44,724 bases of DNA. Origin: a phage. Where the stretch lies: assembly GCA_025471175.1 (NCBI GenBank), contig GCA_025471175.1_4338.1; one strand, 5' to 3'. The notes beneath the pieces are model-generated. The model saw nothing but the letters and a program-made list of their open reading frames with translations, was not told where the DNA came from and did not search any database. The translations under genes were made by a program, and so were the position numbers. The stretch's first letter is position 1. Each line of letters opens with the position of its first letter. This document shows positions 3,878-42,864 of the stretch, piece after piece.

Positions 3878-4029
3878 ACCAGAACCTCGCATTCATCCCG
3901 ATACACGAACAATAACGACCCTTTCCACTCAATCATAAAACCATAATGGTTGCTGCTGAACGCCAGAAAAACATCACCTATCGAGATACCGAAATCGATA
4001 AGCCTGCGGTCAGTTATTCGAATTCTCAT
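3874..4029 (-). CDS. hypothetical small protein (51 aa)
   Basis: Below ORF-track cutoff; ATG at 4027-4029; stop overlaps next ATG. Confidence 0.3.
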   Translation of the reverse strand: MRIRITDRRLIDFGISIGDVFLAFSSNHYGFMIEWKGSLLFVYRDECEVLV

Positions 4030-24286: not shown

Positions 24287-26623
24287 TTAATACCCCGGCT
24301 GGTTTCGCGTAGCCCGGCGGGACTTGGAGATTGCACTGTTGCTGTCTTGTAACGCCGCCGATACTGTTTCACTGATGATAACACGTAACCGCCCTTCGTC
24401 GTCACGCTCTGTAACGGCGGAATCAACTCGTCCGGTGGTGTTGTTGACGATTGTCACGCTGTCACCGCCTGACTTGTTGCCGTTCTCGCCCATAATCTGG
24501 CGCATCTGTTCCGCGGTACGTACGCGTGACGCCCCTGCAGGCATAATAACTTCCGGCTTGTTACGTTCCGCGATAGTAGATAACTGACCTGCGGCTAAGT
24601 TACCGCCCTGCTCACGGGCCGAACGAATCTTACCTATGTTCGCCAGACCTGCGGCTATCGCGGCGGCGGCAGCCACCGGACCAAGTACCCAACCGACAAT
24701 AGGAATCGCGGACGCAGATTTATAAGCCTCGATGGCGGATGTGTATGTGGCTATTGTGGCCTGAGCGATAGCGAATGCTTTATACGCGGAGGACGCCTCG
24801 CCTAGCGATGACTTAATGTTGTCCGCCATCATGCCAAAAGCGTTACCGGTAGCGTTGGCACGTTTCAATGCGTACTGGTCGTTTATCGCGTTAACCGCTG
24901 CCTGGTACTGCTCCTCGTTAATCAGATTCTGTTCACGGTATCTATCAGCAACGTCCAGTTTTTGTTGTTCCTGAATCTCCAGAAGCTCAAGCTCGGCAGC
25001 ATTCTGGCCCATAATCTGAGCCATGAAGTCCTCGCCTTTCTGGTTCTTCTCCTGCCGTTCTTTCTCCCGCTTGGCGAGTTCTTCCTGACGTGCGGTGTCC
25101 GCCTCCAGCATAATTTGAGTTTTGGCGTTCTCGTATTGCTGGTCGCTAAGAAGCTGGTTGCCGTAAAACTCTTGTAGCTTGGTTAACTGTTGCTCCTGAT
25201 TAGCTTCTATTTTCTGGAATACGTCGTCATTGAGATGAATCGACTGGTAGTAGAAATCCTCCGCGGCTTTCTTCTGGCGCTCGAACGCGTCCGCAGCTTT
25301 CTTGGCGGCTTTTGCACCAGCATTATCATCTTCGGACCCGCCACCAGTACCAGTTACCTTAAATTTACTAAGCCCTTCTTCCTTAGCGGCTTCTTTGTCG
25401 ATGTCATATGCCGCGCGTTTAAGCGCGACGATATTTTGCTGAGCCTCCACCTGTTCGCGGAAACTTTTACGGGTCAGGTCCGCAACATCGCGCTGAGTAT
25501 CCAGTGCCATCCCTAGCTGGAAGTTAATGTTTTTTGCTACGTCTACAGATTCCCCTGGTGTGAAGGCTGCTTTCACCAACCGGCCAGCGTCCTGCGCCCC
25601 TTTAACCATATCTTCAAAGAAGCGCTCCATCGCGGTAAATTCTTCCGCGATGAAATCGAGCGCATCGGCTGCTGATTCCGCGATGGTTGTCGCCGTTTGT
25701 TCGCCGCTGTCGGTGATACTTTTACTGCTAAAATCCCAAAGTTCATTCAGTCCATTTATCGCGTCACCTACAAAACCAAATGCCGCGTCGAACGACATCT
25801 CTATCGCGCTTCCTACTTCCGACGCGATGTCACCCCACATACGCATCTCTGCGGCAAGTTCACCGGATGCAACCTGTGCGTTAAGTTCCTGGATTAAATC
25901 ATTGATGTATCGGATAGGTTCGGCGAGCGCACCAACATCAAGACTGGTAGCCAGTGTCATTTTTAACTGCGACCATGAGTCGCTGGCACTGGCTATGGCC
26001 CCGTTAAGTGTGTTAGCCTGGTCCGCCATAGCCCCAGCGAAGTTTACGTTACCAATGTTGAGCAGGTATTGCTCTATATCGGCAGCGCTCTTCTTAACCA
26101 CCGTAGTAGTGCCCTGGAATGTAAATTCAACATCGTCTTTGTTCTGCTTAGCCTTGATGCCGAATTCTTTAAGGCGCTCAAATTCAAACGTACTGGCGTC
26201 CGCAACGGCCTCAATCATCTGATTTAGGTCTTTACCCATAGCAGCGGCAGTGTTGCCATAGGAGCGCAACGCTTCTTCTGATGGTGTAAGACCAAGCGCC
26301 ACAAGTTTACGGAATCCCTCTACTGCCTGTTCAAGACCATACGGGGTGTCGCGCGCGAAGTCTTGCAGGATGCTTAATGCCTGTCTCGCCCCCTGCGTGC
26401 TTCCGGTTAGTGTTTTCAGGCTGGCGGACATCTTGTCCAGTTGCCGTTGGGAGTCTACCAGTTCCTGTGCGGCCTTGTACGCGGTAGCAGCGACGATGGA
26501 AGCGAGGCCCGCTACCGCGGCCCCGGCTACCTTTGCGGACTTGGAAAGGTTATCAAGACGGTCTGAGGTAGCTTTCGCGCCTTGCTCTGATACTTTTACA
26601 ACTAAACTAGCTACATCAGCCAT
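24287..26623 (-). CDS. tail tape measure protein
   Basis: 778 aa, Ala/Gln/Glu-rich helical repeats; downstream of G/GT chaperone genes. Confidence 0.85.
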   Translation of the reverse strand: MADVASLVVKVSEQGAKATSDRLDNLSKSAKVAGAAVAGLASIVAATAYKAAQELVDSQRQLDKMSASLKTLTGSTQGARQALSILQDFARDTPYGLEQAVEGFRKLVALGLTPSEEALRSYGNTAAAMGKDLNQMIEAVADASTFEFERLKEFGIKAKQNKDDVEFTFQGTTTVVKKSAADIEQYLLNIGNVNFAGAMADQANTLNGAIASASDSWSQLKMTLATSLDVGALAEPIRYINDLIQELNAQVASGELAAEMRMWGDIASEVGSAIEMSFDAAFGFVGDAINGLNELWDFSSKSITDSGEQTATTIAESAADALDFIAEEFTAMERFFEDMVKGAQDAGRLVKAAFTPGESVDVAKNINFQLGMALDTQRDVADLTRKSFREQVEAQQNIVALKRAAYDIDKEAAKEEGLSKFKVTGTGGGSEDDNAGAKAAKKAADAFERQKKAAEDFYYQSIHLNDDVFQKIEANQEQQLTKLQEFYGNQLLSDQQYENAKTQIMLEADTARQEELAKREKERQEKNQKGEDFMAQIMGQNAAELELLEIQEQQKLDVADRYREQNLINEEQYQAAVNAINDQYALKRANATGNAFGMMADNIKSSLGEASSAYKAFAIAQATIATYTSAIEAYKSASAIPIVGWVLGPVAAAAAIAAGLANIGKIRSAREQGGNLAAGQLSTIAERNKPEVIMPAGASRVRTAEQMRQIMGENGNKSGGDSVTIVNNTTGRVDSAVTERDDEGRLRVIISETVSAALQDSNSAISKSRRATRNQPGY

Positions 26624-26975
26624 CGTTTCTGCCCTCGAAAATAGCGTCTAAGCTCATGATGATGTCAGATTCAAACATGTCTATATTCTGGCCCGAAACG
26701 GTGCTGTATGCCACTAAATCCGACCATCTTAACTGTTCGCGCGGGTACATCTTGATGCCGTCGTCATCCACTCGGCGGGTAAATTTGATTTCCCGGTACT
26801 TCTCGAAGGTGGTTAATAGCTCAGGGGGGCATTCTGGCCCGGTATCCTGCGTTGCTTCCGGCGCGTCTTGCATAACCCCCATAGCAATTAGCGCGGCTTT
26901 ATGTCCGTCGGCAATGCTGTCAAACTCCCGCCGTTTGTGGCGGGTTATGAAGTTCCAACGGGCAAACTGGAGCAA
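26616..26975 (-). CDS. tail assembly chaperone T segment (expressed as G-T fusion by -1 frameshift)
   Basis: Frame is open upstream of the TTG and overlaps the 3' end of the G gene in the -1 frame. Confidence 0.5.
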   Translation of the reverse strand: MLQFARWNFITRHKRREFDSIADGHKAALIAMGVMQDAPEATQDTGPECPPELLTTFEKYREIKFTRRVDDDGIKMYPREQLRWSDLVAYSTVSGQNIDMFESDIIMSLDAIFEGRNDG

Positions 26976-26980
26976 CGCGT

Positions 26981-27397
26981 CTACTTTTCCTGCAATTGGT
27001 GAAGCTGTTCGTTGTGGAAAACAACAACGTGTTCAGCGAGGCGTTTATATTGTGAGAAAAGAGTGTTCAGGTTCTCTTTATTAAATTCATCGTCGAGACT
27101 CCAACCGTTAACCAGTTCAAGTGCTAACTGGCGGTTAAGGTCCGTCGCGGCGTCTTCCATCTTAATATTGTATTCCGAGAAATCTTTCAGTTCCTCACAT
27201 TTATCACGAAGCGGTTTCAATTTACCTAATGCCGCGCGGTACGCAAGTGTAAACGCCCTCATAGCTTTAACGGCAACGTCTGCCTCCGGTGAAACAACGT
27301 TCAGCCACTCCCCTGAATCGGTGCCGTCTTTCAGTGGTATTGGCATACGGGCGCCTTTTTCTGCCTCAGCTTCGTAATAAAAATCAGAAAGTTTCAT
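26981..27397 (-). CDS. tail assembly chaperone (gpG-like)
   Basis: 138 aa acidic protein immediately upstream of T segment and tape measure. Confidence 0.6.
   Translation of the reverse strand: MKLSDFYYEAEAEKGARMPIPLKDGTDSGEWLNVVSPEADVAVKAMRAFTLAYRAALGKLKPLRDKCEELKDFSEYNIKMEDAATDLNRQLALELVNGWSLDDEFNKENLNTLFSQYKRLAEHVVVFHNEQLHQLQEK
26984..26990 (-). other. candidate -1 programmed frameshift site
   Basis: Minus strand GGAAAAG (CAG GAA AAG TAG) directly before the G stop; -1 frame continues into T ORF. Confidence 0.45.
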
Positions 27398-27504
27398 TCT
27401 TTAATCCTTTGGTTAAGAGGTTACTGGTTAAGGTTAATGCGCCAGACGGGAACCACCCGCTTTTCGTGTGCGACACTAGGCGCAAAATAATTCTAACACA
27501 TTAC

Positions 27505-27574: not shown

Positions 27575-27766
27575 ATGACAGGTATTACTATGTTCTTCTT
27601 AATCATTATCGTTTTAGTTTATTTTATCCCATTTCTCGTGGCGCATATGCGCAACCATAAAGCTAAATTAGCGATATTCATGGCTAATCTGTTTCTCGGT
27701 TGGGTTCTGCTGCCGTGGGTATTTATTTTAATCTGGGCGTGCAACTCGAATGTCAAAGAGAAGTGA
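27575..27766 (+). CDS. Imm-like superinfection immunity membrane protein
   Basis: 63 aa, two hydrophobic segments; YFIPFLVAHMRNHKAKLAIFMANLFLGWVLLPWVFILIWA matches the remembered Imm_superinfect pattern; AGGAG RBS. Confidence 0.55.
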   Translation: MTGITMFFLIIIVLVYFIPFLVAHMRNHKAKLAIFMANLFLGWVLLPWVFILIWACNSNVKEK

Positions 27767-27805
27767 GCTAGTATAGGACAAATCCTAAACACGAGGAAGT
27801 AAAGC

Positions 27806-28936
27806 ATGGCTCATAAGAAAATAACCGACGAACAGTTACGGGAAGAATTGAACGCCGGAACAAAAATTATTGATATCTCACGTAAGTATGGAATCTCAGA
27901 CCGCGTTATCCGTATCCGTAAAGCGAAGCTGGCTAAGAAAGGTGTAGGCCACGGTCGCGACGTTAGTCACCTTGTGCCTGACGGCTACAAGATTAAAGGT
28001 ACGTCGTCTCTGGTGGACGAGTTCGGCAACACTAAACTGCAATGGGTTAAGACCGACACTGACGCAGAACGTCAGGTCGAGTTGATGAAAGCTGTAATCG
28101 AGGGCATGAAGTCAGAGATTACGCCGGTTGCGCCTGTTAAAGCCGTTCGCGCCAAACGTGACGATAAACTACTTAATCTTTACACTGTATCTGATTTCCA
28201 TCTCGGTATGCTGGCCTGGGCTGACGAGAGCGGCGACGACTGGGACATGAAGATTGCAGAAGACCTGTTCTCTCGATGGTTCGACGCGGCATTCCAGAAA
28301 GCACCGGACGCGGGAACAGGAGTTATTAACCTGCTGGGCGACCTTGCGCACTTCGATAGTCTGGATGCGGTTACCCCCGCAAGTGGTCACGTTCTTGATG
28401 CGGACACTCGCTATCAGAAACTTGTCCGCTACATGATTCGTATGGTCCGCCGTGTTGTCGGTATGGCGCTGGTTAAGCATAAAAATGTTCGCTTGCTTAT
28501 CGTGCAAGGAAACCACGACGAAAGCGGAATGATTTGGTTAGCTGAGATGTTTAGTACGCTGTACGACAATGAGCCTTGTGTGTTCGTCGATACGTCGCCG
28601 GATGTTTACAAGATGGTCCAACACGGCAAAACTACGCTGTTCTTTCACCACGGGCATAAGGCGCGATTCGACGCTATCGAACCGGTAATGATTGCCAAGT
28701 TCCGCAAAGCGTTCGGCGAGAGTGTTTACAGCTACGCCCACGTAGGCCATCTGCACCACCAGAAGATTGTAGAAAGCCGTAACATGATTGTTGAGCAACA
28801 CCGCACCTTAGCGGCTAAAGACGCCTACGCCTCGCGCGGCGGATGGATGTCGGGCCGTAGTGCAAATGTAATTACTTATAGCGCCGAATATGGCGAGGTC
28901 GCACGTTTAATTATTTCACCGGAGATGCTGGGATGA
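27806..28936 (+). CDS. HTH-domain calcineurin-like metallophosphoesterase
   Basis: 376 aa; N-terminal HTH (DISRKYGISDRVIRIRKAK); phosphoesterase motifs SDFH, GDLAHFD, GNHDE, HHGH, GHLHH in canonical order. Confidence 0.65.
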   Translation: MAHKKITDEQLREELNAGTKIIDISRKYGISDRVIRIRKAKLAKKGVGHGRDVSHLVPDGYKIKGTSSLVDEFGNTKLQWVKTDTDAERQVELMKAVIEGMKSEITPVAPVKAVRAKRDDKLLNLYTVSDFHLGMLAWADESGDDWDMKIAEDLFSRWFDAAFQKAPDAGTGVINLLGDLAHFDSLDAVTPASGHVLDADTRYQKLVRYMIRMVRRVVGMALVKHKNVRLLIVQGNHDESGMIWLAEMFSTLYDNEPCVFVDTSPDVYKMVQHGKTTLFFHHGHKARFDAIEPVMIAKFRKAFGESVYSYAHVGHLHHQKIVESRNMIVEQHRTLAAKDAYASRGGWMSGRSANVITYSAEYGEVARLIISPEMLG

Positions 28937-29133
28937 AAGATATGTATGAATGCACCGATGTGAGTCCGTACGCGGAGAAAAATGGATTCGAAGTAGGCGC
29001 TGTATATGAAGGGGTCACCCTAGAGAACGGCGACGTAAGAATGTATTCGCCTAAATATCGCAGCTTCTTTGAAATAGGCAACATTAACGAGTCAGGCATA
29101 GCCAGATTTAAGAGAGTTAACAGTGACAAATAA
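28933..29133 (+). CDS. hypothetical protein (66 aa)
   Basis: ATGA overlap with upstream gene. Confidence 0.45.
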   Translation: MKDMYECTDVSPYAEKNGFEVGAVYEGVTLENGDVRMYSPKYRSFFEIGNINESGIARFKRVNSDK

Positions 29134-29353
29134 ATACAACCGCACAATGACAAACATTCACGGCAGCACTATGACAGTAGACGTTTACGATGTTCTCCGT
29201 GCCTTCGACATCCGTGACCCTGCACTACAGCACGCATTGAAGAAACTATTGTGTATGGGTCTTCGCGGGCACAAGGACACCGGAACCGACTTAGCGGAAG
29301 CAATTGAAAGTCTGGAGAAGTTACGGGAGTACCATAGTAATATTGATGAGTGA
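29123..29353 (+). CDS. small phage protein, possibly DUF3310-like
   Basis: 76 aa; GTG with AAGAGAG upstream; motif match recalled from memory only. Confidence 0.4.
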   Translation: MTNKYNRTMTNIHGSTMTVDVYDVLRAFDIRDPALQHALKKLLCMGLRGHKDTGTDLAEAIESLEKLREYHSNIDE

Positions 29354-29355
29354 GA

Positions 29356-29385
29356 AAAAGGCCCCGAAAGGGGCCTTAGTTTTAT
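29356..29385. terminator. bidirectional rho-independent terminator
   Basis: aaggcccc-gaaa-ggggcctt hairpin with A-run and T-run flanks; same stem as terminators at 17583 and 37854. Confidence 0.6.
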
Positions 29386-30014
29386 CGTTGTGACTTAATT
29401 ACAGAAACAGCTCTTGGGTATATTCTCCCATCTATGGAATCCATAAGCGGCTTAAGTTCTTCTGCTATTTCCAATTTCCGCAACGTTCTGACCTTGATGG
29501 CTTCGTCCAAATCAATAAAATCGCCTAAGTTTTCTCGCACCCCGGTTATGGGGTTGTTGACACGGCATCGTATCTTGCCGTTTGTTTTTCTATAAGTAAG
29601 ACCTATTGGTAGGTCTCCTCTAACTGCCGCGCTGTCGGTTAGGAAGTTGTTTAAAACTCTCGGGACAAAGATGCATGTCTCCGGTGAGTATTCTTTGGTG
29701 TCTGTAAGTAAATCCTTGTCTACATGCCAACCATCTACGTAATTATCTTTATACCATTTAAAGTAGTTGGAGAAATACAGCCTGTCTTCGCATACTACCA
29801 CACCTGCGTATGTTGGGTGCTTAGCACCCCCGTGGTAGCACCTGAATATCATCGCATACCAAATATCGTACACTGGGTGGTTAACAGACTTTTTGCCGTT
29901 GAAAATACTGGTGGTAAAATCAGCGTCGTTGATACCGACACCGCAGATTGTTTTACGGCATGATATCGCCCGTTTTGATGCAGGTATCTTTTCAAATTCT
30001 TCATACAGAAACAT
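29382..30014 (-). CDS. putative HNH/His-Me finger endonuclease with AP2-like domain
   Basis: 210 aa; N-terminal YDIWYAMIFRCYH and WHVDKD...N pattern; C-terminal YRKTNGKIRCRVNNPITGVRENLGDF resembles AP2-type domain; GAGGTG RBS. Confidence 0.45.
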   Translation of the reverse strand: MFLYEEFEKIPASKRAISCRKTICGVGINDADFTTSIFNGKKSVNHPVYDIWYAMIFRCYHGGAKHPTYAGVVVCEDRLYFSNYFKWYKDNYVDGWHVDKDLLTDTKEYSPETCIFVPRVLNNFLTDSAAVRGDLPIGLTYRKTNGKIRCRVNNPITGVRENLGDFIDLDEAIKVRTLRKLEIAEELKPLMDSIDGRIYPRAVSVIKSQR

Positions 30015-30039
30015 TATTCACCTCGTCAGGCTCGTGTAT

Positions 30040-30081
30040 TTATCGGATAAAGGAAAGAGAGGGCACGACCCCTCTCTTTTT
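30040..30081 (-). terminator. candidate terminator/attenuator after tail tube gene
   Basis: 8-bp stem agagaggg/ccctctct with U-rich run on minus strand. Confidence 0.4.
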
Positions 30082-30121
30082 CGCCCGCTAAAGCTATCCT
30101 TTACGCTTCTTATACCACAAG

Positions 30122-31294
30122 TTATACGTAACTGATACGTTGAATTACGATGGACGACTGGTACTGATTGCCTGTGGACTGCCCTTCTATACTTTGGGTA
30201 ATTGATTCCGGGCCAGATATTTCTGGTGTGACCGCCGTAAGTTCGGCGCGTTTCAGACTGAAAGACATAGCCCCGTTCACCCCCGCCAGAATAGAATTAA
30301 TCTCTACCTGCTGCTCGTTGATAAACTTCTGAATCATCGCCATGTCGTACAGCTTGCCGGAGATAGAGAAGGTGTTAGCCGCGCGTCCACGTTCCACGAA
30401 CGCCACGCTACTGTTGCCGAGTTCGAACTGCGCGGATGCGCTGTTGTCGTTGGTGATGGTCAGAGTATCGCAACGTAACGGCGTAGAACCGTCGAACACA
30501 GACACATCAACCGAAGAGAACGGCTCATCAGTGAAGGTTACTTGCGAGAAATCAGAACCCGCTGGCCGTGCAGAAAGAATCTCCTGACTCAGGCCAATGA
30601 ACGGGAAACTACCGGTGACCATAGCGTTAACCGCCTGCTCTACGGTGAAGCCGGAAATTTCCACGCCTTTGGTCAGCATGTACGCGTCCGGGTTACCACA
30701 CTGGCCCTTGAACCATGTCAGAATAGAGAACGTCCTACACGCATTACCGGTTTCCAGTTTGTCGCCAGTTTTTGCGTCAGTGGTTACTGTCTCTGCTGTC
30801 AGCGTGTGCTGAATACCTGCGCCCGTAACTACCAGAGTGGAAACCGCGGTCACGATAAACGGTTTTGCGTTGTCGCCGGTTAAGTCGGTGAACGCAATCA
30901 GGTCGCCAACTTCTACACCGTCAGTAATGAAGCTACCGGCAGCGCGGGTGAATGTTTTACCTGCTGGGGCGACCGTAATTTCGGCGCCAGTAATCTCTAC
31001 CCCATCTTGCCACGTAGACGTCATCGCGCCCGCGAGGAAATCATCCTGACTACGTGAGCTAAGTTCGATGGCGTACTCCCCGCTAACCTGTTTGTTACCG
31101 GTGCGGATGGATGTGGTTTCTCGGCTGCCGTCCAGTTCGTTGGAAGTCAGCGCATCGCGGGTTACAGCGGGGACACCGCCAGTGTTACGCAACGGCGACC
31201 ATACCGGGTTAGTCGGTGTTACGCCAGGGGTAGTCTCCGCCACATAGAATTGCGCGGTATTCGCGCCCTTAAAAGGAGTTGTAGCCATATTCAC
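30122..31294 (-). CDS. major tail (tube) protein, putative
   Basis: 390 aa, Thr/Ser/Gly-rich; last of the coupled neck/tail genes. Confidence 0.5.
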   Translation of the reverse strand: MNMATTPFKGANTAQFYVAETTPGVTPTNPVWSPLRNTGGVPAVTRDALTSNELDGSRETTSIRTGNKQVSGEYAIELSSRSQDDFLAGAMTSTWQDGVEITGAEITVAPAGKTFTRAAGSFITDGVEVGDLIAFTDLTGDNAKPFIVTAVSTLVVTGAGIQHTLTAETVTTDAKTGDKLETGNACRTFSILTWFKGQCGNPDAYMLTKGVEISGFTVEQAVNAMVTGSFPFIGLSQEILSARPAGSDFSQVTFTDEPFSSVDVSVFDGSTPLRCDTLTITNDNSASAQFELGNSSVAFVERGRAANTFSISGKLYDMAMIQKFINEQQVEINSILAGVNGAMSFSLKRAELTAVTPEISGPESITQSIEGQSTGNQYQSSIVIQRISYV

Positions 31295-40944: not shown

Positions 40945-42195
40945 TTAAAGTGCGAAAGTCACCGGGATGTTTATTACTGGTTTAACCACCGGCATCTCGT
41001 AAACTACAGGATAGCCGAGAGCATCCGCCATATGGTCAATGATGCCATCTTTAGCGGGCTCCCCGTTATCGTCGTATGCCTGCTGCTCCAGCGTCTTCGC
41101 TATCTCAGGGCATAAGTGGTCGTTAACCCACAGCTTACCTTTTTCCAGCGCGGTATTCACCGCTAAAACACGGTCTTTAACAGGGGGGTTGGCGGATTTA
41201 GCGCGAACATCAAACCCTGCCTGCTGTAGTAACGCAATATCGGAGATTGACGCCGAGTTGGTTTTGCGGTTCTTGCCGCTGGCGTCTGGGTAAACGACGA
41301 TGCGGTGGCCTTGCGACTTCCACTTCTCAGTAATTACACGCACGGTGTCCGGCGTGTCAAACAAGCCTTTCAGTTCTGCTACCGCGTGCCAGCCGTCCTT
41401 ACGCTGCACATACACGGCGCTGGCGTTCTTTGTAACGTTGAAGTCCTGCCCGATGTACAGTGTGTCGCCGGGTTGAATCGTCTCTTTGCTACGATGCTTA
41501 CGGCGGTCGTATGCGTAGTACACGCTGCCGGAAGTCAGGTTGACGAATTCCCCATTCAGGTAGGCGTTAATCAACTGCGCCGGGTACGTCTCGGTCAGCG
41601 AGCTAATGTAATCCGGTGGCAGGAACCTGGCGTTCTCATGAGTTGACGCCTGCACCATAGAGTAGCTAGGTGTCGGGTTCTCTTTGAACTTGGCATAGAC
41701 GAACTTGAATCCCTCCGGTGTCGTGGTAACGGAGATGTGGTTTACCACTCCAGGGATAACCAGACGCATACGGGCTACGATTTTGTTCCACGCCAGTTCC
41801 GCTTTCTCGCGGCTCAGAACGTCCAGTTCATCAACGACCGCCGCGGCTATTTTGAAACCGACGATAGAGCCTGGGTTATCCATCGAACGGCAGATTACTG
41901 TACCGATTACTGTCTTACCTCTCGTAACGACGACCTCTTTGTCGCCGGATTTAACCAGCACATCAAGGCCTAGGAGGTTAGCAGCTTCCTCGAATGTCGG
42001 GTAGAAGATGTCGCGGATAGCCGGGTAGGTCGGGCCGAAGTAACCAAGGCGCGTACCGGGGTGCTTAAGCATGAATGTAAGCAGGTCCAGACAGCCAACA
42101 AACGTCTTACCGCTACCGAAGCCACCGACATATGCCTTGTATTTGTTATCGCAGTTCAGGAACAGCGCCTGTGGCGCGGATAGCTGAATACTCAT
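40945..42195 (-). CDS. terminase large subunit
   Basis: 416 aa; Walker A YVGGFGSGKT, Walker B VVDELD. Confidence 0.9.
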   Translation of the reverse strand: MSIQLSAPQALFLNCDNKYKAYVGGFGSGKTFVGCLDLLTFMLKHPGTRLGYFGPTYPAIRDIFYPTFEEAANLLGLDVLVKSGDKEVVVTRGKTVIGTVICRSMDNPGSIVGFKIAAAVVDELDVLSREKAELAWNKIVARMRLVIPGVVNHISVTTTPEGFKFVYAKFKENPTPSYSMVQASTHENARFLPPDYISSLTETYPAQLINAYLNGEFVNLTSGSVYYAYDRRKHRSKETIQPGDTLYIGQDFNVTKNASAVYVQRKDGWHAVAELKGLFDTPDTVRVITEKWKSQGHRIVVYPDASGKNRKTNSASISDIALLQQAGFDVRAKSANPPVKDRVLAVNTALEKGKLWVNDHLCPEIAKTLEQQAYDDNGEPAKDGIIDHMADALGYPVVYEMPVVKPVINIPVTFAL

Positions 42196-42737
42196 TCCCC
42201 TACCTCACCCATGTTCGTGGTAACGATTTTACCTACCGGCTCCGCTACGGTGAACACAATCTCAGTCGGCGCAGTTTCTTCGGAGGATTCAACAGGTTTC
42301 TCTTTGCTTAAGCCCAGCTTAGCCGCAGCAAACGTAGCGGAGATACCGGCAGCGCCTGTCTCAGTGAAATACGCCTCTTCCAGCGCCTGAGCGGTTTCAT
42401 AGGCTTCTGCAAACGCCGGAATCTCACGCAACCACAGCTTAATAATAGGGATAGTTACGCCGATGTGTAAGGCGAAGCGGGCCAGTGACGGGGGTTTATC
42501 CTGAATCAGCGGGCGTTCGTCACCCTTGGACGTAGGTACGAGTTCCCATGAGTTGCGGTCAAAGAACCGGATTAACTCGTCGCAATAGTCCGGGTCCCAC
42601 AATGCCGCAGAATTACGGGATGATTGATAAAGACTCTGTTTACCGCGCGGTCGTTTACGGCGACGGTTTGCGCTAACAGCTTCTTCATGCGCAGCTTGCA
42701 CCACCTCTGGCGATGGCCGCTTAAGTTTCAGCTTCAT
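42192..42737 (-). CDS. terminase small subunit, putative
   Basis: ORF track 42192..42776 (GTG); ATG at 42735-42737 follows AAGGGGA; overlaps terminase large start. Confidence 0.55.
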   Translation of the reverse strand: MKLKLKRPSPEVVQAAHEEAVSANRRRKRPRGKQSLYQSSRNSAALWDPDYCDELIRFFDRNSWELVPTSKGDERPLIQDKPPSLARFALHIGVTIPIIKLWLREIPAFAEAYETAQALEEAYFTETGAAGISATFAAAKLGLSKEKPVESSEETAPTEIVFTVAEPVGKIVTTNMGEVGE

Positions 42738-42864
42738 AGAATCCCCTTGCATATGCGTCTGACCATCAGAGCGCACCAGACGCGCCCTACGCGTCTAAAG
42801 GGATTATATAAGGGGATTGGGCGGGATGTACAGAAAAGCCCTCCGTAGAGGGCTTGATGGTTGG

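Follow-up and report, generated by a model that had tools for sequence, protein, structure and literature searches.

A putative IPA-HNH/AP2 homing endonuclease gene with an int-alpA-like leader at the tail-tube junction of an Escherichia coli Kagunavirus

A free-standing, endonuclease-like gene lies among the tail genes of the phage contig GCA_025471175.1_4338.1 (NCBI GenBank assembly GCA_025471175.1), and it raises the question of whether this is a mobile homing endonuclease gene (HEG) and, if so, how it reached its site. Here we refer to the whole analysed stretch, 44,724 nucleotides (nt) in length, as the window. The window belongs to a Kagunavirus (Guernseyvirinae), a siphophage of E. coli, and is about 90-95% identical to many GenBank phages, relative to which it is a mosaic. 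The gene in question is a minus-strand open reading frame (ORF) at 29382-30014, which starts with ATG and encodes 210 amino acids (aa). An original prediction, made from the letters alone, had described it as an HNH/AP2-type endonuclease gene with its own ribosome-binding site, wedged between the tail-tube and tail-chaperone genes. We read it as a selfish gene for a putative IPA-HNH/AP2 homing endonuclease, mobile among the Kagunaviruses of E. coli, and put the probability of this reading at roughly 0.7. It is based on the domain content and family of the protein, on the precise insertion and empty sites, on purifying selection, and on cassettes that, together with short flanks, are nearly identical in otherwise diverged genomes.

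Cassette limits, empty sites and transfer footprint

As had been predicted, the ORF is free-standing and has a ribosome-binding site of its own. A Shine-Dalgarno (SD) sequence, GAGGTG, read from the sequence at 30019-30024 (minus strand), lies 4 nt 5′ of the ATG (30012-30014), and ACGAGGTG is kept in locus L017; a single codon separates the ATG from an in-frame stop upstream. This is not a chance ORF, as its product matches a PHROG family (phrog_953, "HNH endonuclease", E 1.2e-65) and has homologues in 5781 clusters of 50% identity at E ≤ 1e-30, and as the gene, intact in 7 of 7 phage copies, shows a ratio of nonsynonymous to synonymous substitution (dN/dS) of 0.05-0.16.

Alignment with VIPECOMC04, EC3-1 and HEG-less fBC-Eco01 delimited a mobile cassette of 740 bp (29382-30121, minus strand), made up of an RNA-like leader, the SD and the ORF. 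The insertion is flanked by the terminator tail ...GGCCTTAGTT on one side and by TTA, the stop codon of the tail-tube gene, on the other. The empty sites are exact: in VIPECOMC04 and EC3-1 the terminator comes after the stop of ORF76, and the tail-tube stop immediately adjoins this terminator. When the tail-tube junction was compared in relatives, the check that the original prediction had proposed, cassette DNA was found in 12 phage records (8 distinct phages), each time at the identical site, against about 117 Escherichia/Kagunavirus records that match the surrounding region; about 90% of Kagunavirus records lack the cassette gene. The G+C content of the cassette is 0.432, that of the tail-tube gene 0.535 and that of the window 0.506. 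A 38%-identical homologue was detected between nucleotide-metabolism genes of a T4-like contig.

The cassette-bearing (HEG+) phages also share a narrow region of identity. The phages fFiEco03, fEg-Eco19 and fFiEco02 show 0 differences over a stretch of 840-1014 bp that has the cassette at its centre (about 29342-30355), while their neighbouring 2.7 kb differs by 7-9%; ORH_001 and Ec1-ASingh have 1 difference across 29358-30256, against 12.7% outside. Such a footprint would be expected if gene conversion had been recent and had taken along only short co-conversion tracts. The 3′ end of the tail-tube gene (30122-30355, minus strand) probably travels with the cassette as a co-conversion tract, for the identical tracts end at 30182-30356 and flank identity is split: compared with the window, the 3′-most 100 nt of this gene is 87-96% identical in HEG+ phages and 73-85% identical in HEG-less ones, whereas the next 100 nt shows no split. 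The last tail-tube codon (30125-30127) is GTA (Val) in the window, Val or Thr in 7 of 7 HEG+ phages, and Ala in 10 of 10 HEG-less phages. The tracts reach further into the tail-tube side, which suggests that the break would be made there or at the junction. Presence or absence at a precise site, exact empty alleles and near-identical cassettes in diverged genomes together bear out the signature of a homing endonuclease that had been proposed for this gene.

In one HEG-less phage, VIPECOTH07 (L002), the final 50 nt of the tail-tube gene (3901-3950 of that locus) has most of the synonymous variants typical of HEG+ phages, with GCG (Ala), the HEG-less type, as the last codon. This phage could once have had the cassette and lost it, or it could hold a resistant allele.

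The protein and the IPA-HNH family

The AP2 half of the predicted HNH/AP2 architecture was upheld. A C-terminal AP2/ERF-type DNA-binding domain (residues ~135-185; 29460-29612, minus strand) was detected by a profile of 24 homologues searched against the PDB (WRI1, 7wq5, E 1.2e-5; AtERF1, E 0.006), by the Pfam AP2 model, matched at E ≤ 1 in 9 of 24 relatives (best E 3.2e-6), and by Foldseek, in which the AlphaFold2 (AF2) model (predicted local distance difference test score, pLDDT, 89) matched 1gcc with a probability of 1.00, a template modelling (TM) score of 0.72 and a root mean square deviation of 1.2 Å. The window protein itself has no Pfam or NCBIfam match.

The N-terminal part (residues ~20-130; 29625-29957, minus strand) is predicted to be an atypical IPA-HNH domain, on the basis of AF2 models with pLDDT of 89 (full) and 87.6. 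Its model contains a beta strand at 96-99, a loop, a second strand at 115-118 and a helix at 119-125, which is a beta-beta-alpha arrangement. Nine residues are invariant in 174 family representatives, namely W52, R58, Y69, D99, K100, D101, Y109, N122 and G138. Among them, D99-K100-D101 (codons 29712-29720, minus strand), modelled at the end of strand 96-99 and kept in ICP1 gp209, forms a candidate active site with N122 (29649-29651), which lies on helix 119-125. In I-HmuI, D74-H75 is located at the end of strand 1 and the helix Asn is N96 (PMC12724721); N122 lies 21-23 residues after D-K-D, comparable to the H75-N96 distance in sequence. We also considered His97 (in WHVDKD) as the HNH histidine, and it was rejected because its column is variable (H/E/Q/D/Y/V/S/A). 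It may be that the IPA-HNH domain uses a histidine-free D-K-D...N active site.

The IPA-HNH HEGs were named by Barth, Dunham and Seed in 2023, with gp59, gp115-116 and gp209 of Vibrio phage ICP1 as founders, and are enriched in Barbaviruses and Flaumdraviruses (PMC10448857). A tblastn search with the window protein matched 2482 places in 1422 phage records, including ICP1 (E 1e-11, corresponding to GP209), Rheinheimera Barba phages, and many Vibrio and Pseudomonas phages. The family profile aligned to ICP1 gp209 with a probability of 99.8% (E 9.3e-28) over 165 columns that cover both domains and include vLDKDi...N; as with the window protein, no Pfam HNH match was found in gp209. The structural relatives in BFVD are Vibrio phage, Pseudomonas KIL-type and other phage proteins, frequently several per phage. 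Within the window, no paralogue of the gene was found, and PHROG scans of ten other ORFs gave no further endonuclease. Since the protein has both the gp209 homology and these BFVD neighbours, its membership in the IPA-HNH family is, by sequence and model comparison, established. The gene thus adds one more ordinary member to a family that is known but has yet to be characterised.

The window gene resembles the IPA-HNH HEGs of ICP1 in having an atypical N-terminal domain unseen by Pfam HNH_3 together with a C-terminal AP2 domain, and in being free-standing, beside an essential structural gene and at a boundary of genetic exchange. With gp209 it also shares its length (210 aa in both) and LDKD...N. 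On the other hand, its identity to gp209 is only ~30%, its host lineage is a Kagunavirus, which is not highlighted in PMC10448857, and, unlike the ICP1 genes, it has its cassette limits, empty site, co-conversion tract and structured leader defined.

A second point of comparison is Escherichia phage EC3-1 gp32, an example of the canonical HNH_3-AP2 proteins. The AP2 domain is equally far from the putative catalytic helix Asn in both, and they have a genomic hotspot in common, gp32 being located ~0.5 kb away inside the neighbouring plus-strand cassette. Canonical HNH_3-AP2 homing endonucleases are a class reportedly described by Magnani et al. in 2004. Their N-terminal domains and that of the window protein are not detectably related when taken alone, with D-H...N in the former and D-K-D...N in the latter. 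A full-length hhalign alignment to HNH_3-AP2 was collinear, but its N-domain part had low confidence, and when single HNH_3 proteins and the HNH_3 family alignment were used in hhalign, only the AP2 part aligned.

Mobile nuclease gene or resident gene

For nuclease activity, target site, expression route and immunity mechanism, we infer the following course. A cell would be co-infected by a cassette-bearing and a cassette-free Kagunavirus, and the protein would be made at a low level, probably via read-through of the late tail-tube transcript through the leader. The AP2 domain would recognise a particular sequence in the cassette-free genome, located at the tail-tube stop/terminator junction or close to it, and the N-terminal domain, with its predicted beta-beta-alpha arrangement and its invariant D99-K100-D101 and N122, would nick or cut nearby. 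Recombination repair from the cassette-bearing genome would copy the cassette along with ~25-70 bp of the terminator side and ~60-235 bp of the tail-tube 3′ end, and cassette-bearing genomes would escape cutting, as their target site is split by the insertion and their last tail-tube codon is a different one. This course is likened to that of the free-standing HEGs of T4 (MobE and Seg; PMC2790892, PMC2988022), which are likewise intergenic selfish genes, found in some relatives and not in others; their spread depends on a double-strand break followed by gene conversion, in which flanking markers are co-converted. The T4 genes differ in their nuclease family and DNA-binding domain.

Perhaps the gene is not a nuclease gene at all, and encodes a domesticated AP2 DNA-binding protein, a junction regulator or exclusion factor that is beneficial and was spread by ordinary recombination. 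Such a protein would fit with AP2 being the only domain that standard models detect and with the lack of a conserved catalytic histidine; strong purifying selection also suits a useful gene, and Barth et al. stressed that HEG-like genes are often neofunctionalised (PMC10448857). It is, however, hard to explain by binding alone why D-K-D...N, on a modelled beta-beta-alpha arrangement, is kept in 174 of 174 representatives and in gp209 as well. Moreover, the identical tracts cluster closely around the cassette in two allele groups that are independent of each other, and the copies are patchy, with more than one in related phages such as ICP1, as is the case with HEGs. We consider a domesticated protein unlikely.

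The gene might also be ancestral, vertically inherited, repeatedly deleted and not mobile at present. A homologue of 61% identity, with the same leader architecture, does indeed follow the tail-tube gene, at the same position, in a more distantly related phage with a tube protein of 70% identity, and the two Kagunavirus alleles of the gene differ by a synonymous divergence (dS) of 0.55, which points to an old residence at the site. Yet 0-1 difference over 840-1014 bp, against a flank divergence of 7-13%, cannot be vertical; the empty sites have no deletion scars, and the HEG+ phages are not the closest relatives of the window in the replication module. An immobile ancestral gene is therefore quite improbable. 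Another suggestion comes from the fBC-Eco01 paper, in which a packaging role is proposed for other Kagunavirus HNH genes; the product would then be a packaging-associated HNH protein that assists the terminase, of the HK97 gp74 type. We give this hardly any credence for a gene that most Kagunavirus records lack, that is far from the terminase genes (40945-42776), and whose product contains an AP2 domain but lacks a canonical HNH motif.

Several points nevertheless weigh against a mobile IPA-HNH/AP2 HEG. The same-site homologue of 61% identity means that the distribution could partly be due to old vertical inheritance with losses. The phages fFiEco02, fFiEco03 and fEg-Eco19 may, judging by their names, come from one laboratory; their records give different countries and no laboratory. 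Codon 78 of the window ORF (29781-29783, minus strand) is AGG (Arg), while TGG (Trp) is found in 171 of the 174 family representatives and in all seven other Kagunavirus copies examined; this W78R, a single-base change, may impair the copy in the window, or may be a sequencing error. The canonical HNH half of the predicted HNH/AP2 assignment was not recovered by Pfam, the PDB or the HNH_3 profile: there was no Pfam HNH match at E ≤ 1 in the protein or in 23 relatives, and none in NCBIfam; no nuclease in the PDB was matched by the N-terminal domain in phmmer and profile searches or in Foldseek with full and N-domain-only models; and the N-terminal domain alone gave an hhalign probability of 0.4% against the HNH_3 family alignment. 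The canonical general-base histidine is absent, with Lys100 or Asp101 occupying that region. The link to the HNH superfamily comes from the HHsearch/HHpred results of others (PMC10448857; GenBank notes for fFiEco02 and fFiEco03). Finally, we met no report of a biochemically tested IPA-HNH member, in a literature that was not searched specifically for one.

The structured leader and the neighbouring region

The 108 nt from the tail-tube stop to the ATG of the endonuclease gene hold a 22-nt block, GGATAGCTTTAGCGGGCGAAAA, which does not vary in any HEG+ Kagunavirus; L017 matches it at 22/22 positions, with a nucleotide identity of only 62% in the endonuclease gene. This region contains a putative structured leader (30047-30106, minus strand) that resembles the int-alpA RNA of Rfam (RF02996; alignment score 18.8 bits). 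Its minimum free energy fold gives the parts P1 (GUAAAGGA/UCCUUUAU, 8/8 pairs), P2 (GCUU/GGGC), a junction CGAAAA and P3, which is the hairpin at 30054-30079; P1 varies on both strands between instances, yet stays paired. The original prediction had placed terminators on both flanks of the gene. On the upstream side, this hairpin was first taken as a plain terminator, a reading now replaced by the P3 stem of the int-alpA-like structure; only the downstream terminator, described below, stood. We also examined the 22-mer as a sigma-70 promoter (TTGTGG-N18-TAGCTT), which was rejected as weak and uncalled in a consensus scan, with TAGCTT inside the RNA structure, and as a likeness to a tRNA D-arm, which was dropped since the Rfam match explains the 22-mer.

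The leader shares with RF02996 a closing stem P1 around two hairpins, the UAGC...GCGAAAAG core, a CU bulge and an SD downstream. It is low-scoring because its P3 is long: its 18.8 bits are under the gathering threshold of 35.8 bits, while L017 scores 30.3 and contigs with other endonucleases and an identical core score 36.2-50.0. A further difference is that the family is named for its integrase/alpA neighbours and typed as a small RNA, whereas here the element stands 5′ of endonuclease ORFs and a tail operon, as their leader. The main text of Weinberg 2017 does not mention int-alpA.

The leader contains an invariant 21-nt core, GATAGCTTTAGCGGGCGAAAA. Exact matches to this core, in IMG/VR and metagenomes, were found 40-70 nt upstream of unrelated endonuclease ORFs; instances are L021 (12908-12974), L022 (7455-7517), L023 (615-682), L024 (2958-3026), L025 (1144-1206) and L017 (3914-3981). 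The ORFs led by the core encode a NUMOD4/HNH_3/HTH protein, a small zinc HNH, an 'RCY...IDRIN...N' type and a zinc-ribbon HNH, which together with IPA-HNH/AP2 make five types. The core element gives the impression of a portable 5′ leader, used by selfish nuclease genes.

A second int-alpA-like element was identified at 27422-27486 (minus strand; 34.2 bits, E 0.0019 for the whole window), the sole Rfam match of the window at E ≤ 0.5. The element is found 25 nt before the ATG of the tail-assembly-chaperone gene (27397), with a promoter-like site (27555-27527) upstream of the element, and it is present at the same place in HEG-less fBC-Eco01, KMB36, EC3-1 and VIPECOMC04. By its predicted structure, the leader of the endonuclease cassette is of the same class as the leader of the phage's own chaperone/tape-measure operon. 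Tentatively, and with the odds somewhat against it, the mobile unit could be bipartite, that is, a portable RNA leader of the int-alpA class joined to an exchangeable nuclease ORF, with the RNA as a cis-acting control element. Such control might concern, for example, read-through, antitermination, stability or translation, and the nuclease genes would copy the RNA from late operons or share it with them.

As to the placement of the gene, it was confirmed to lie downstream of the tail-tube gene (30122-31294, minus strand; PF18906, E 5.5e-36) and upstream of the tail-assembly-chaperone ORFs (26981-27397 and 26616-26975, minus strand) and the tape-measure gene. It does not directly adjoin the chaperone, because a plus-strand cassette (27575-29353) that encodes a superinfection immunity protein (Imm_superinfect), a metallophosphoesterase and two small ORFs is located between them. 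Nor is the tail module otherwise coupled, the plus-strand cassette interrupting it in 16 of 16 related phage loci inspected. The two chaperone ORFs (26616-27397) match Phage_TAC_4 and Phage_TAC_18 and are a programmed-frameshift pair in the annotation of fFiEco02 and fFiEco03; in the window they are separated by a 5-nt gap (26975 to 26981), and the second begins at TTG.

On the downstream side of the endonuclease ORF, we identified a bidirectional terminator-like hairpin, AAGGCCCC-GAAA-GGGGCCTT (29358-29377, both strands; z -4.0 and -5.5), which is found in all HEG+ and HEG-less relatives. It ends both the plus-strand cassette and the endonuclease ORF, and in HEG-less phages it serves the cassette and the tail-tube gene.

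It had also been proposed that the endonuclease might explain the acquisition of the neighbouring cassette. This was not borne out, as sii-metallophosphoesterase cassette DNA is present in 791 phage records (Salmonella, Escherichia and Klebsiella), nearly all of them without the endonuclease, against 12 for the endonuclease gene. Because its DNA is conserved in so many records, the plus-strand cassette is a long-established component, not a newly gained moron. It is variable only at its distal end, beside the hotspot mentioned above, which fits the position of nuclease genes, as these tend to sit at exchange boundaries (PMC10448857).

That hotspot for insertion consists of the convergent junction (29354-30124; equivalents in L001-L004 and L011-L016) and the distal end of the plus-strand cassette. 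In sister phages, variants are found at the junction or a few hundred bp off, within the plus-strand cassette: a 52-58 aa ORF; in KMB36, a plus-strand HNH_3 gene bracketed by two terminator copies; in EC3-1, an HNH_3+AP2 gene in place of ORF66; and in VIPECOTH07 and many others, genes for polynucleotide kinase and dNMP kinase. In HEG+ phage PDP21P8 (L009), unrelated sequence at ~2210-2460 replaces the ORF66 region of the plus-strand cassette, which marks another exchange boundary. One of the compared records, vB_EcoM_SHAK7693 (L012, OR594180.1), is assigned to Autographiviridae/Kayfunavirus in the GenBank taxonomy, while its sequence here is that of a Kagunavirus-type siphophage, so that it is probably mislabelled. 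Elsewhere in these genomes, inteins are present in head-morphogenesis and helicase genes of the relatives Snoke, KMB36, Sciku, Shashou and fEg-Eco06, and VIPECOMC04 has further 'homing endonuclease' annotations near its portal gene. The genus Kagunavirus seems to be rich in selfish elements.

For annotation, the value of the finding is modest, and IPA-HNH/AP2 putative homing endonuclease, rather than canonical HNH, is an apt label for the gene. Its unusually clean footprint, with cassette limits, an empty site, tracts and a diagnostic last codon, makes it a ready system in culturable coliphages for asking whether IPA-HNH proteins cut DNA at all, and by what chemistry. The tail-tube/terminator junction is a recombination hotspot, and this is relevant to phage engineering and to phage-therapy genomics. 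The likeliest source of new insight is the int-alpA-like leader, which ties an orphan RNA motif to mobile nuclease genes and to a tail operon; if the mobile unit is truly bipartite, the orphan int-alpA motif would be given a function.

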